A stretch of 64,000 nucleotides of DNA from an uncultured Nitrososphaerales archaeon. GTDB lineage: Archaea; Thermoproteota; Nitrososphaeria; Nitrososphaerales; Nitrososphaeraceae. A program made the position numbers and the translations under genes. The stretch spans positions 107,154 to 171,153 of the forward strand of contig CAVPXM010000053.1 of the NCBI GenBank assembly GCA_963709405.1, given 5' to 3'. Shown one piece after another: positions 19,360-32,700 of this stretch (the first letter of the stretch is position 1; the number at the start of each line of letters is the position of its first letter). The notes under the pieces were generated by a model. That model saw nothing but the letters and a program-made list of their open reading frames with translations. It did not search any database and was not told the origin of the DNA.

Positions 19360-19804
19360 CAGTGCAAAATCGTATGTTATTACAGCCTATTATAGCTTAT
19401 CTCGCTGTCAAGTTCAGGGATTTGTGAAATAATGAAGACTCTTATCACATTCTAAATATCAAAAGTAAAGAAATGCTACTAGGCGTTAAAATCAAGAAAA
19501 GGTCCCTCGAGATGGAAACTCAAATCTTCCGAATATCTTTGATCTGTTGAGTTGAGTTTACATGATTTGTTTTTGATATAGTGTGTTTGTTTGACCTTGT
19601 GTATAAACGATAGTTATCTTGATATCAAATTAGATATTACTGTAGATATCAACAATATTGACCTTATCCAACTTTGATAGATACCTTAGAGGCTATCGTG
19701 AATTAGCGACTGCTGAAAGTAGCATCTCAAGCAAATAATTTATGTACGTATACGCAACATAAGGCCAATGTAAATTATCCTCTCTAAGTCACAATAAAAC
19801 AACC

Positions 19805-20780
19805 TCACCACCCCAAAACCCTAGCAGACTCTTTGGCAGCATCATCTAGTGCTTGTTTTGGTTGTTTGACATAAACCTCTTCAATTGCCTCTCTTATGTG
19901 TTCTGCTATTTGTGGATACTCAGCTGCAAACTGGTCTGCTCTTACCAATCGAAAGTTGGCCATTGTTGGCGTGGAAAAACACCTGGTACCCAGGACCCAC
20001 TTTGCAGCACAACAAGCTTCCTAACAGCAAACAATTTGTCTGGATTACTTTTCAGCGGTTTTATACCTGCATCGATCTGTTCTTTGATAAATTCAAGTGC
20101 TTTCATACCTGCTGAGCTATTATATGCAGGAAACCAGTAACTGCCCTTTACTGGGTGTCCATTTTTCATCACAAGTATGTCACCTCCGAGCATCCATAGA
20201 TAAGGATACCAGATATCCGGAGAATAGTTTAAACCAACAAGGGCAGCACCCGAAATTCCCATCGGTCCTAGAGCATAATTAATTTTCCTTGCGGACGCCA
20301 TATACCCATCTTTCCAAAGAATTCGGATCAACACTTACATACCATACACTTTACCTCTATACACCCCTCCATCAAAATTCGTTTGATACCAATCAGAAGA
20401 TCTACCCCAAATCTTTACATAATCTGTAAGATCTGTTAGAAAACCTCTTTGAGCAAAATCTCCAAGCCAGATTTGGTCGACAGAGATTAGATCAATAGCA
20501 CTTTTGTTACCTAACGGTCCTGGTCTGATTGTAAGGGGTTGTGGTATAACTTATTTGAATATTTAGATCAGGATGCCTTGCTTGCAATTCCTGTATCGCA
20601 GGTTGCAAGAGACCATCCCATTTTATGACGTTGCCTAGATTTATCAACCATGGCTGTAATTACAACTTGTTTTTTCTGTTGAGCTAAAACCAAGTCGGTA
20701 CGTGCGCTAGCAGAAAGAGATATTATACTCATGATTAATCCTACAACAAAGATGCCGCTAACAGTTGAGAATCTAGCCAT
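19805..20780 (-). pseudogene. fragmented sugar-type extracellular solute-binding protein (family 1)
   Basis: signal-peptide fragment 20568..20780; DLISVDQIWLGDFAQRGFLTDL near 20430-20500; WYPYLWMLGGDI..AYNSSAGMKALEF; C-terminus YPQIAEHIREAIEEV..ALDDAAKESARVLGW* ending 19805; frameshifts and internal deletion. Confidence 0.8.
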
Positions 20781-21273
20781 GAGCGAGCGTAAACGGCATT
20801 TCCCTATTAATCCTTGCTTCTTATCAGGACGATAAATCCATAAATTACCAGTACAAGGGCTTATATTTTGAATTTTTTCCCATTTAGGTAGATGACAAAA
20901 TGAATAATGAATGAATCTTTAACCTATCTTTATATCTAGGGAAATGGGATTATGTCTCAAACTTTGTAATTCAAAGGCTGAATTCTTCAAAAGATGCACG
21001 AAAGATAGATCGACAGCTTATTTTGTATAGGGTGTTAGTTTGTGGTCTTGCTTTCATCGAATTAAAGTAATGATTTTTAAATGTAGTATGTAGGATACAG
21101 GAGTGAGGTGATTTGTATTATTTTTGAACGGTGAGATAGCAAAACGAATATTCTGGAGTAGTATTGTAAACATATAGATTGGTCTCTAGTTTGAAGTTAA
21201 TATGCTCCCTAACGAAAACCTTATAGTAATACCAGGTTAGCTGATATATACAAATGAGAAGGAGGTTGTAGAG

Positions 21274-25317: not shown

Positions 25318-27846
25318 TTGGTGCAAATATATAATGTTGTCCTGTGTAACAAGTTAAGCATATTAATGAATTTAGGAAATGGGAGATCTTTTGTTTTAAG
25401 GATGGTTCTTATGTCATTCTCCCAAGTTCTAGCTGAAATTGTCAGACGTAAAAAGGATCCTGGTAACCGTGACTGTGATTCATATGAGCATTCGCGATCT
25501 AGTGGTTATTCATTCAGCTTAACATATAACGATCTCGCCAGATGGTTATTCATAACACTAGCTTTTATGGGTATTCTGGCTACCGGTTGGTTTGGGATAC
25601 CACTTGCACCAAGATATCTAGCACTCCATCAGGTCGATATACAAGCTGAAATATTCACGTTATTTAGTGCATTAGGCACTATCTGGGGCGTAATGGCGTA
25701 TCGTGAGTTGACAAGATCAGGCGTGCTCATCGTGGAAGTAAGAGACCTTGCACGCAATCTCGATCCACTTATGGGGAATTACGATTATCGATCTTATAAT
25801 CCTGAAACTAAGGAGTACGAAAATGGCTATCTTCCACTTGGTCCAATAGACTTTTGGGATAAAGAAACCCAAGTGCCGACGTGGCTAGATAAAGGCAAAT
25901 ATTGGCATGTCTTACTTGGCCTTCAAACTGGGACTAAGGAAATTATTCTTCAGGTTGTACGGGATACCGATCTGCCATTTGCAGTGGACAGAAGAAACGT
26001 CGCTGTTACCTATAAAGAGACGATATCACAAGATGGATCCCAACGCAAGACAAATAAACGTTACAGATACAGGGTAAAAATACCGCAGTGGTTAGTCATG
26101 AATACTGACCGAGTCAGGTTGATGGATCGCCAAAAAGGAGTACAAGTTGACGATGCCAAGATTGGTACGCTTATAGCAGAGCTTAACAGGAAACTTGTTC
26201 TGGCCTCGGAGGAAATTGTAGAGAGGGAAAGAGCAAGAATCAAATATCCATGGAAATTAACGACGCTAGGTATTTATATAAATAAGAGCCTCCCTATTCG
26301 ACTAATTTACAATGAAATCATTAGACATCTACCTGGTGCAAAAAAGAGATCTATTGCATATACGAATGAGAACCTTGCCAATATAAAAGACGACGAGCTA
26401 ATTTCTGCCATAGTTCAGGCTGCCATGCAGAGAGGAATATCTGATGACAAGATTTTTAGAATTAGAGCACTCGTGCGATTCCTTCAAAAATCATACACGT
26501 CCCAAGGAATTGGTGAAGGATCGAGTGAATATCATAATTTCCATCATACCCTCGAAGTCTCTTATTTAAGCCTACAAATGCTACCGCGAGAATTTCGCAA
26601 CTATAGGTTTAATTCGACTGATTATGAGTTGCTTCTGATAGCTGGTCTTTTACATGATTATGACCCAGCTCAGCTAGAGTCCGATCGTAACCCTGGTACT
26701 AGTCCCAAAGGACCCAATGTTGTAAGAACTATAAATGAGATACAACGGACTGGGATTCATGATGCATATTTTACGATGAGTGGGTATGAATTTGAAAATT
26801 ACTTTAGAGAATATAAATCAGCACTCTTGCCTCCAATAGAATTTGCGACAACTCATCCTGAGTATATTATGCCGCAAAACAGAGGAGTAAACGAAAGTAA
26901 AATTATTGAAGCATTGATCTGGAGAACTGATTTCCCATATTTTAAGCAAGAGCTGGCTCAGAAGAGATTTTCTGAACATATATCTGATCTTGAAAAGACT
27001 GGTTCCGATTCAAGTAAGATAAAGATAATTGGCGAGATACTGTGGCTAGCTGATTTATCTGTTACCTATATGGGTTCAGATCCAATTAGGGCTTGGGTCA
27101 GAGTCACCAACCTATATGAAGAACTATATCTTCCAAAAGTTGAAGCTGTGTCAAGAACCGATGAGTTTTTTTCAGATTTTGCCGAGACCGATCTCTTTAA
27201 GGAGCTAATCCGTATCCGACATTTTCCGGATATCTTTAGACAAAGATGGAACCTTATATACCAATTTTTTCATGAGGGCAATCCGTCAACACAACTGAAC
27301 AGAACTATTAACAAGGCACGAGGACTATACCTTAAAGTTAATATAGAAATAGAAATGCGGAGCGGGGATATCTTGGAAGAAATCGCAGTAAATAATTGGG
27401 CAGAGTATTTTATCGGCATCGGGAAAGACCAGACAGAGGTCTCTAGGGCAAAGTCAAGGTTTGCCGATTTAGATCCACCTAATGCTTCATCATTTTGGGG
27501 AGACACTCATAAGTTAATCCCAAACATTGCAAATAGATCTGTTGACAATTTTTTTCTTGTTTTACCTGAAAAAGATCTCTCCAAATCTATGAATAGCGAA
27601 AAATCAGGAATGACATCCCTATTGTCGCACATGTCAGCTAAATTAAGAGCAAGGGGATCTCTTCAGGTTCTAACAGACATCGAAGAATCTAGTAAATGCT
27701 TCACCGACCTCATATCAATTTGTGCAAACTCAGGCTTCCATATAGATTCTGGCAGACTCCGCAAAGAATATTTTCCAACGAAAATAGGCGAACCATATTT
27801 TATTGTTGGTCGTAAAGTTCAGACTTTAGTTTTCAATTTAGATTAA
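25318..27846 (+). CDS. membrane-anchored HD/PDEase-like phosphohydrolase with C-terminal methyltransferase-like fold
   Basis: two TM helices, YHNFHHTLEV, AGLLHDYD, LWLADLS; C-terminal Rossmann-like region. True start may be ~25402-25411. Confidence 0.75.
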   Translation: MVQIYNVVLCNKLSILMNLGNGRSFVLRMVLMSFSQVLAEIVRRKKDPGNRDCDSYEHSRSSGYSFSLTYNDLARWLFITLAFMGILATGWFGIPLAPRYLALHQVDIQAEIFTLFSALGTIWGVMAYRELTRSGVLIVEVRDLARNLDPLMGNYDYRSYNPETKEYENGYLPLGPIDFWDKETQVPTWLDKGKYWHVLLGLQTGTKEIILQVVRDTDLPFAVDRRNVAVTYKETISQDGSQRKTNKRYRYRVKIPQWLVMNTDRVRLMDRQKGVQVDDAKIGTLIAELNRKLVLASEEIVERERARIKYPWKLTTLGIYINKSLPIRLIYNEIIRHLPGAKKRSIAYTNENLANIKDDELISAIVQAAMQRGISDDKIFRIRALVRFLQKSYTSQGIGEGSSEYHNFHHTLEVSYLSLQMLPREFRNYRFNSTDYELLLIAGLLHDYDPAQLESDRNPGTSPKGPNVVRTINEIQRTGIHDAYFTMSGYEFENYFREYKSALLPPIEFATTHPEYIMPQNRGVNESKIIEALIWRTDFPYFKQELAQKRFSEHISDLEKTGSDSSKIKIIGEILWLADLSVTYMGSDPIRAWVRVTNLYEELYLPKVEAVSRTDEFFSDFAETDLFKELIRIRHFPDIFRQRWNLIYQFFHEGNPSTQLNRTINKARGLYLKVNIEIEMRSGDILEEIAVNNWAEYFIGIGKDQTEVSRAKSRFADLDPPNASSFWGDTHKLIPNIANRSVDNFFLVLPEKDLSKSMNSEKSGMTSLLSHMSAKLRARGSLQVLTDIEESSKCFTDLISICANSGFHIDSGRLRKEYFPTKIGEPYFIVGRKVQTLVFNLD

Positions 27847-32218: not shown

Positions 32219-32700
32219 ATGGCTGAAAAGAAATCTGTGAATGCACTAGTTAGTGGCGGAGAGGCAAGCGCTGGACCACCACTTGGTCCGGCGTTAGGCC
32301 CAATTGGAGTGAATGTATTACAAGTTGTAAACGCGATTAATGAGAAGACCAAGGATTTTCCTGGCATGAAAGTCCCTGTGAAGGTAGAAGTTGATTCAGA
32401 CACCAAACAATTTACTGTTGAAGTAGGAGTTCCACCTACAGCGAGCTTTAATACTAAAAGAGGCAGGAATAACTAAAGGTTCTGGTACTACAGGGTACAG
32501 CCAGTGCAGGAAAGATCACAATGAATAGCATAGTCAAAATTGCGAAGATGAAGATCGATAATTCCTATGCCAGCAGCATCAAAAGTGCCGCGAAAGAAGT
32601 CATAGGCTCATGTCTAAGTATCGGAATCTTAATCGATGACAAGACGCCAAAGGAAACCTACATCGAAATTAAAAACGGTATGTATAAAGAACTCCTTTAA
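32219..32700 (+). CDS. rpl11: 50S ribosomal protein uL11 (two +1 frameshifts at ~32443 and ~32494, likely sequence errors)
   Basis: [20 protein letters not shown]; shifted frames continue [14 protein letters not shown] and [30 protein letters not shown] to TAA at 32700. Confidence 0.92.

Follow-up and report, generated by a model that had tools for sequence, protein, structure and literature searches.

Class I cyclic-nucleotide phosphodiesterases (PDEs) are regarded as essentially eukaryotic, so that an active sister family in archaea or bacteria would bear on their origin. They possess an invariant purine-binding Gln and a hydrophobic clamp. Their signature is given as HNX2H-Xn-[EDQ]X10HDX2HX25E in an earlier study (PMC5526615). 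Archaea contain 3',5'-cyclic AMP (cAMP), yet according to a 2023 review none of their proteins had been characterised as making, degrading or binding it (PMC10249747); two other papers note that class III cyclases form family-specific clusters (PMC13577086) and that Thaumarchaeota have CpdA (PMC9289680). Here we analyse one gene of an uncultured Nitrososphaerales archaeon, located in a stretch of 64,000 nucleotides of contig CAVPXM010000053.1 (positions 107,154 to 171,153), hereafter called the window. As far as the models tell, the architecture of its product is real and family-wide: a membrane hairpin, an orphan domain, an HD domain that resembles class I PDEs and whose putative metal site is intact, and a pseudo-TrmB tail. 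We tentatively propose that the protein is a regulated membrane phosphodiesterase with cyclic nucleoside monophosphates (cNMPs) as candidate substrate, a reading that we regard as quite possible, a little short of probable.

A conserved family gene and its predicted HD fold

The open reading frame (ORF) and the motifs quoted in a preliminary description are confirmed: YHNFHHTLEV (H406, codon 26533; H410), AGLLHDYD (H446, D447), LWLADLS (D579) and the C-terminal strings were all found in the translation, and the interpretation then given is partly supported. Residues are numbered here from the TTG start; the database copy is the 826-residue form starting at the ATG, as does the structure model, the numbers of which are 16 lower. 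Because orthologues sharing 40-82% identity occur in 24/24 and 49/49 same-family genomes, the ORF is not a chance one. In the set of 24 they extend over most of the length, one having an internal stop. When 200 genomes were drawn more widely from the order, each of the 49 family genomes matched in one place; 45 of these matches were almost complete (one of them interrupted by a TGA), three were partial and one was frameshifted. The full-length form was absent among the 151 genomes from other families of the order. Judged from NCBI names, the family is the Nitrososphaeraceae. A search of 250 further genomes of the phylum gave no match to the N-terminal region, and all 73 of its matches among proteins of 144-494 residues were strong (36-99% identity), the taxon-named ones being mostly partial proteins of Nitrososphaeraceae. 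We conclude that the gene is a conserved Nitrososphaeraceae-wide family gene. The public run with the longest cover stems from a strain about 95% alike, in which the insertions and deletions are mostly intergenic; of the 12 rows listed, only one falls inside the ORF, and it is in frame. A literature search that left subscription journals and bioRxiv supplements outside its scope found neither the protein nor its HD family described; pan-genome supplements on ammonia-oxidising archaea (AOA) may list the family.

Against Pfam and NCBIfam, the window copy gives sub-cut-off matches only, to Methyltransf_4/TrmB (Pfam Methyltransf_4 at residues 674-793, E 3.5e-4, 20.5 bits for a cut-off of 24) and to PDEase_I/HD (PDEase_I at residues 405-449, E 5.7e-3; HD, E 9.3e-3). 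A single-sequence search of the PDB with the protein returned no significant match, PADLOC none, and a viral fold library matched methyltransferases, none of them informative. PDEase_I is the commonest Pfam match of 44 family members (34/44 at E<=0.05), and when a profile of these 44 HD domains was compared with PDB sequences, the best 60 of 113 matches were all class I PDEs (PDE5, E 2.4e-4), aligned over the N-terminal half only. An AlphaFold2 model of the whole protein, built from 25 sequences (mean predicted local distance difference test, pLDDT, 79; predicted template modelling score, pTM, 0.69), was searched against a fold library of 48,161 representative chains. Among the 50 VIA rows shown (Z>=13.0), below which others may rank, the HD-type rows are class I PDEs only, namely PDE9A (Z 15.8; root mean square deviation, rmsd, 5.8 over 270 aligned residues), PDE5 (15.6), RhoPDE (15.4), PDE4D (15.2) and yeast PDE2 (13.8). 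The predicted HD model compared with PDE9A, 5, 10, 4 and 2 gave Z 13.8-16.2 and rmsd 4.3-6.0 over 241-273 residues, and the matched PDEs come from animals, a choanoflagellate, trypanosomatids and yeast. Fold and profile searches thus agree on the class-I-PDE-like HD fold that had been suspected, and every HD-type match shown is a class I PDE and not an ordinary nucleotidase.

Conservation was counted in 87 non-redundant orthologues (under 90% identity) and expressed as mean top-residue frequency. H406, H409, H410, E413, H446, D447, T537 and D579 are invariant in 87/87. The orthologues retain the class I signature in its first half, with [EDQ]x10HD in 87/87 and HNx2H in 66/87, Ser replacing Asn in the other 21, and the PDE5 motif HDLDH aligns with HDYDP in the profile alignment. 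A putative zinc-ligand set of H410, H446, D447 and D579 is present in all 87; the first three align with those of PDE5, while D579 was assigned by motif and fold. Taken together with the model, the HD domain is likely a metal-dependent phosphohydrolase on a PDE-like scaffold. An HD-GYP cyclic-dinucleotide phosphodiesterase was also considered and rejected: the HD-GYP motif is HHExxDGxGYP, it is absent from the sequence, and HD_5 is not among the 12 Pfam families matched by the 44 members.

Table 1. Features of the gene in the window
Feature	Positions	Strand	Remarks
Whole ORF	25318..27846	+	842 residues from TTG, 826 from ATG 25366; Nitrososphaeraceae family gene
Predicted two-helix membrane hairpin with short connector	25519..25701	+	Residues ~68-128; models, hydropathy, conservation
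Family-specific alpha/beta domain, presumably cytoplasmic	25708..26253	+	Residues ~131-312; models, conservation, searches
HD domain, predicted class-I-PDE-like fold	26353..27297	+	Residues ~346-660; fold and profile searches
YHNFHHTLE	26530..26556	+	H406 as putative general acid, H410 as putative metal ligand, and E413, all three in 87/87
HDYDP	26653..26667	+	H446/D447 invariant; Pro450 where class I PDEs have His
TDFP	26926..26937	+	T537 87/87; T[DE][FY]P 87/87
DLSVTY	27052..27069	+	D579 putative fourth metal ligand, 87/87
TrmB-like class I methyltransferase fold without motif-I G-x-G, post-strand-2 acid and PDP Asp	27328..27843	+	Residues ~671-842; fold, profile, alignment

Hairpin, N-terminal domain and TrmB-like tail

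In the models a helical hairpin with a short connector is followed by a small alpha/beta domain, which ends in a 31-residue helix, then by a large domain of helices and a tail of Rossmann type. The two membrane helices proposed earlier are predicted here too: helix 1 (~residues 76-97) by hydropathy (up to 1.81 over 19 residues) and model, helix 2 (~residues 108-128), which is only moderately hydrophobic and stays below 1.5 in the same scan, by the modelled hairpin. Hairpin conservation (0.71) is on a par with that of the HD domain (0.68), and being conserved like the enzyme domain, the hairpin probably does more than anchor the protein. The protein had been called sensor-coupled; a sensor on the outside does not fit, because the two helices enclose no folded domain, just a short stretch holding a single helix of 8 residues, both in the whole-protein model and in an N-terminal model built separately (from 40 sequences, pLDDT 88.5); the uncharacterised domain lies after helix 2, on the enzyme's side if the protein spans the membrane twice. 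In that case every soluble domain would be on one side, presumably the cytoplasm. The alpha/beta domain contains near-invariant FWD, WxDKxKYW and PQW motifs, with many near-invariant aromatic and basic residues. Foldseek found no match to the N-terminal model at E<=0.001, and the rows of the VIA search align to little besides the helical hairpin (best Z 9.1); since the hairpin dominated these fold searches, they bear little on the soluble part and we do not claim a new fold. A WW-domain match (E 0.089) is weak and was treated as chance.

The TrmB-like class I methyltransferase fold seen at the C-terminus, and its degeneration by loss of the glycine loop and PDPW, were both borne out. TrmB ranks first by fold and by profile: TrmB and METTL1 are the top fold matches (EcTrmB, Z 17.6-17.8; at Z 17.6, rmsd 3.3 over 179 aligned residues) and 1yzh is the best profile match (E 8.6e-7). 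The tail aligns end to end with a stand-alone TrmB-like paralogue, and G-x-G is found in 0/87 fused domains versus 22/22 stand-alone ones, the second Gly being kept in 1/87 and replaced by Arg/Lys in 58/87. The acid after strand 2, which we take to be the ribose-binding residue of TrmB, is Asp in 2, Glu in none and Gly in 69 of the 87, versus Glu/Asp in 22/22 paralogues. The PDP Asp, where we place the catalytic Asp of TrmB, occurs in 0/87 (Glu 39, Gln 17, Lys 14) versus 18/22. Some pocket residues are partly kept (strand-1 acid, Glu or Asp, 75/87; D729 63/87; T786 72/87). Conservation falls from 0.70 in the first half of the tail to 0.42 in the second, the lowest of the folded domains. Binding of tRNA by the tail is not supported, since the TrmB basic insert PWPKKRHEKRR falls, in the 1yzh alignment, in this poorly conserved half; nor is the regulation by S-adenosylmethionine (SAM) or S-adenosylhomocysteine (SAH) that was first proposed, in its canonical form, given the loss of G-x-G and of the ribose-binding acid. 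Judged from its residues, the tail is best read as a pseudo-enzyme for which canonical SAM binding is unlikely, although an altered adenosine pocket is conceivable; it perhaps derives from the stand-alone paralogue. The JGI label 'tRNA G46 methylase TrmB' on 800-residue proteins is probably a mis-annotation, because the methyltransferase motifs are lost.

The stand-alone TrmB-like gene of the same genomes (~190-210 residues; G000:C63:140145-140765 and loci L032, L033, L218-L237) has intact ELGMGDG, GIE and LPDP motifs and usually follows MtnA/eIF-2B-like and FeS_assembly_P/PqqD genes in an operon-like row. By its motifs, it is a candidate archaeal tRNA m7G enzyme. A 2018 review describes a catalytic Asp in TrmB enzymes and names no archaeal tRNA m7G enzyme (PMC6320965).

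Cyclic-nucleotide setting and competing explanations

Class III cyclase matches above the Pfam cut-off occur in 24/24 family genomes, with 4-16 in each and 16 in the genome of the window, and in 5/16 genomes of other families. The window's genome (91% complete) further encodes three proteins with a cNMP-binding domain, two fused to a pyridine-nucleotide oxidoreductase and one to a HATPase domain; it gave no CYTH and no DAC match, leaving c-di-AMP without a visible source there. The HD part of our protein, without the rest, was matched elsewhere in the order in 7/7, 10/10 and 47/49 genomes of three families, which we take to be other ammonia oxidisers (one cluster member is named Ca. Nitrosotalea), and in 0/85 genomes of twelve others. 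All 13 HD-only loci fetched from other families encode a paralogue of ~450-540 residues, HD-GNAT, which in Nitrososphaeraceae has a class III cyclase no more than 1 kb away at 8/27 loci, from 7 genomes and 7 genera (L039, L042, L044, L045, L049, L050, L054 and L059; some of the other loci have short flanks). HD-GNAT may be a cNMP-linked acetyltransferase.

For Nitrososphaera viennensis, a published study (PMC7785015) allows a look at expression. The gene order N4/N6 DNA methylase, cob(II)yrinate reductase-like, 778-residue hypothetical protein, HxlR regulator in its supplementary file 3 matches our locus L089, and NVIE_015460 is therefore the likely orthologue by gene order. Its transcripts were present in both conditions (copper limitation, log2 fold change -0.14, adjusted p 0.18) and the proteome contained it with 3 unique peptides (8.5% coverage). 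RNA runs mapped on the contig of the window were discarded as expression evidence, their cover being flat over genes and intergenic DNA, and a sigma-70 promoter scan stayed at chance level, with a model unsuited to archaea.

The mechanism we put forward would be as follows. A membrane-anchored, metal-dependent PDE would hydrolyse the 3',5'-cyclic nucleotides predicted from the class III cyclases, H410, H446, D447 and D579 holding the metals and H406 acting as acid, by analogy with class I PDEs. The hairpin and the family-specific domain might relay a membrane or cytoplasmic input through the long helix before the HD domain, and the pseudo-methyltransferase would be a structural or allosteric cap rather than an enzyme. 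The flanking non-catalytic domains presumably set activity. The assignment of the substrate is the weakest step.

Several observations weigh against it. None of the 87 orthologues has HD-x2-H-x25-E, with which the class I signature ends, and all 87 have HD[YF]xP; the PF00233 score is 16.8 bits for the whole protein and 20.0 for the domain alone, for a gathering threshold of 24.8, and the match is limited to model positions 1-45. With half of the signature missing, the domain is a look-alike and, judged by sequence, lies outside PF00233. The C-terminal, substrate-pocket half of the HD domain, searched alone, finds no PDE by sequence, residues 574-625 contain no conserved Gln (V596, Y600, T614, D615 and F617/F618 are conserved instead), and an rmsd of 4.3-6.0 Å is loose for a mostly helical domain. 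The cyclase context is likewise uneven. HD-GNAT pairs with a cyclase in 0/13 loci of other families; seven of the eight adjacent cyclases form one clade (99%) and the eighth comes from another, which may mean only one or two events, kept in several orientations. The target gene itself is near a cyclase in 0/29, 1/20 and 2/110 loci (overlapping sets, many with short flanks), and two genomes of other families (G030 and G033) have 5 and 9 cyclase matches and no HD-family match. The target HD domain is a subfamily distinct from HD-GNAT, having several motifs in common with Omnitrophota and Elusimicrobiota proteins instead; the association of HD-GNAT with cyclases therefore supports a cNMP role for the HD family and for the target protein only indirectly. 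Of ten aligned cyclases of the window's genome, two show the NxAxRL motif; the other eight keep the two metal aspartates and lack this motif, mostly with Lys or Met at the Arg position, an archaeal variant whose activity is putative. The same genome has 11 metallophosphoesterase matches, and the annotated CpdA-like NVIE_028520 of N. viennensis was detected with 10 peptides and ~18-fold higher intensity than NVIE_015460 (PMC7785015), making it a real rival for bulk cAMP turnover, its function being only annotated.

The main alternative, possible though on the unlikely side, is that the HD domain, PDE-like in fold, is an active phosphohydrolase of another substrate (a nucleoside mono- or polyphosphate, a dinucleotide, an inositol or a lipid-headgroup phosphate) and serves housekeeping at the membrane, not signalling. 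A membrane protein of several domains, one of them a dead enzyme, is more typical of regulated signalling enzymes, which counts against this, as do the class I PDEs that make up all listed HD-type structure and sequence matches, and neighbours that vary by genus (purB in one, cupredoxin/NUDIX in another). On the other hand, near-universal single-copy retention and the unchanged transcript level of the likely orthologue under copper limitation (PMC7785015) would suit housekeeping, the substrate-pocket half differs from that of PDEs, the co-oriented genes that recur beside it outside the own genus encode a BluB-like nitroreductase, myo-inositol-1-phosphate synthase and SMC, and HD enzymes have broad substrate ranges (PMC8431786). 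It is improbable that the HD domain mainly binds nucleotide and that the protein is a membrane receptor or scaffold with output through hairpin, N-terminal domain or pseudo-methyltransferase: the putative catalytic residues are invariant in 87/87, as expected of an active enzyme, even if the hairpin is conserved like the HD domain, the N-terminal domain has its near-invariant aromatic and basic residues and the fourth ligand is Glu in 12/18 HD-GNAT proteins, which would fit a sensing role there.

RNA-end processing, in which tRNA would dock on the TrmB-like domain for the HD domain to open or remove a 2',3'-cyclic or 3' phosphate, is a still slimmer prospect. TrmB and METTL1 as top fold matches of the tail favour it, and HD domains can act on 2',3'-cyclic phosphates (PMC8431786); the membrane anchor would be left unexplained and the recurring neighbours include no RNA-processing gene except an RtcB-like one (named from its sequence) in one genus. 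Nor is the basic insert after the TrmB PDPW, which presumably binds tRNA there, conserved in the tail half at 0.42. We give hardly any weight to the earlier suggestion that SAM or SAH in the tail regulates the enzyme, a switch that would report methylation potential: the retained fold, strand-1 acid, D729 and T786 would agree with it, as would the position of GNAT, another adenosyl-cofactor binder, in HD-GNAT, against which stand G-x-G in 0/87 and the ribose-binding acid in 2/87, with 22/22 for both in the stand-alone paralogue.

Returning to the membrane cNMP phosphodiesterase, a more far-reaching version, which we consider doubtful as a whole, would make the protein the prototype of an unnamed prokaryotic class-I-like PDE family within an undescribed cNMP network of AOA, composed of many class III cyclases, the membrane PDE, the cyclase-linked HD-GNAT acetyltransferase, the cNMP-binding oxidoreductases and a kinase. 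In the same version the tail would be a SAM pocket retooled as allosteric site, where the changes of the ribose-binding Glu to Gly and of the loop Gly to Arg would allow binding of a phosphorylated adenosine such as cAMP or AMP; if true, the tail does the job of the GAF domains in animal PDEs. The gene offers a specific candidate that can be assayed, in an organism that can be cultivated (N. viennensis, where it is likely NVIE_015460), and even if the substrate is not a cNMP, it is a family marker of soil ammonia oxidisers, labelled TrmB by JGI despite lost motifs.

Neighbouring genes, relatives and known systems

The cupredoxin, CtaA and NUDIX neighbours of the preliminary description are real at the window locus; as flanks, however, cupredoxin, CtaA-like, NUDIX and D-aminoacyl-tRNA deacylase genes are confined to the seven genomes of the own genus. 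Outside it, a BluB-like nitroreductase is often found upstream and inositol-1-phosphate synthase with SMC downstream, and in one genus a gene that we take from its sequence to be purB lies upstream. We read the neighbourhood as chromosomal synteny without a clear pathway. At L085:4064-7213 (-) the target gene and the upstream BluB-like nitroreductase share one frame of 1050 codons. When metagenomes were scanned for bacterial neighbourhoods, every locus returned was archaeal and held the target gene or HD-GNAT. In the window, a ribosomal protein L11-like gene at 32219-32700 (+) and a sugar-binding-protein-like gene at ~19600-20800 (-) read across more than one frame, and the HD-GNAT copy of the same genome (G000:C21:115424-116819) is also broken across frames, which suggests assembly indel errors and not true pseudogenes.

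HD-GNAT occurs in nearly all genomes of the three other families and in most Nitrososphaeraceae. At seven loci of two other families (L053, L064, L067, L068, L073, L074 and L078) it stands tail to tail with large membrane genes, which we take from their sequence for a complex I operon end, in most cases with a TenA/PqqC-family gene nearby. Among the distant relatives of the HD domain, at 24-35% identity, are a giant protein of Ca. Omnitrophota, a tandem-HD protein of Elusimicrobiota, a helix-turn-helix (HTH)-HD protein and stand-alone proteins of ~280 residues; the HD family was thus seen in ~2,800-residue proteins (one from Ca. Omnitrophota), in an Elusimicrobiota tandem pair behind a signal-peptide-like start and behind two HTH domains (P0175, P0187, P0178, P0177). 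A search of the ESM Atlas with homologue P0046 gave its own clusters plus one bacterial HD-methyltransferase cluster at 0.80, to be taken as a lead only. The HD tree is a quick, unrooted version in which long branches meet, from which we claim no donor or order of events.

Compared with these relatives and with known systems, the target protein stands apart in several respects. HD-GNAT proteins (~440-570 residues, same order) belong to the same HD family by mutual matches and the motifs H..H-L-E, HD[YF]DP and T.[YF]P, and also end in a domain of adenosyl-cofactor type; they differ in having no match to hairpin or N-terminal domain, GNAT in place of the methyltransferase, a separate tree branch, a presence in three further families and the frequent adjoining class III cyclase. 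The Omnitrophota, Elusimicrobiota and ~280-residue HD proteins share the PxVxxT, T[DE][YF]P, D..TY, RV..L..EL, T..F and W motifs, at 24-33% identity, in other architectures of no known function. TrmB/Trm8/METTL1 (PF02390) share the fold of the tail, which is without their motif I G-x-G, post-strand-2 acid and PDP Asp. The CpdA-type (class III, metallophosphoesterase) cAMP PDE annotated in Thaumarchaeota would perform the same reaction with an unrelated fold in a small protein of 254 residues. From class I PDEs (PF00233) the target differs by 11-16% identity only, by its invariant E413, P450, P466 and TD-F-P, by lacking HD-x2-H-x25-E and any GAF, PAS or UCR domain, by its C-terminal pseudo-methyltransferase and by its archaeal origin. 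With PDE9A, PDE5A, PDE10A, PDE4, the choanoflagellate RhoPDE and the trypanosomatid PDEB1 it shares the predicted catalytic fold over 240-270 residues, YHNx2H, [EDQ]x10HD and the downstream ADLS-like Asp, and with RhoPDE a membrane anchor upstream of the catalytic domain.

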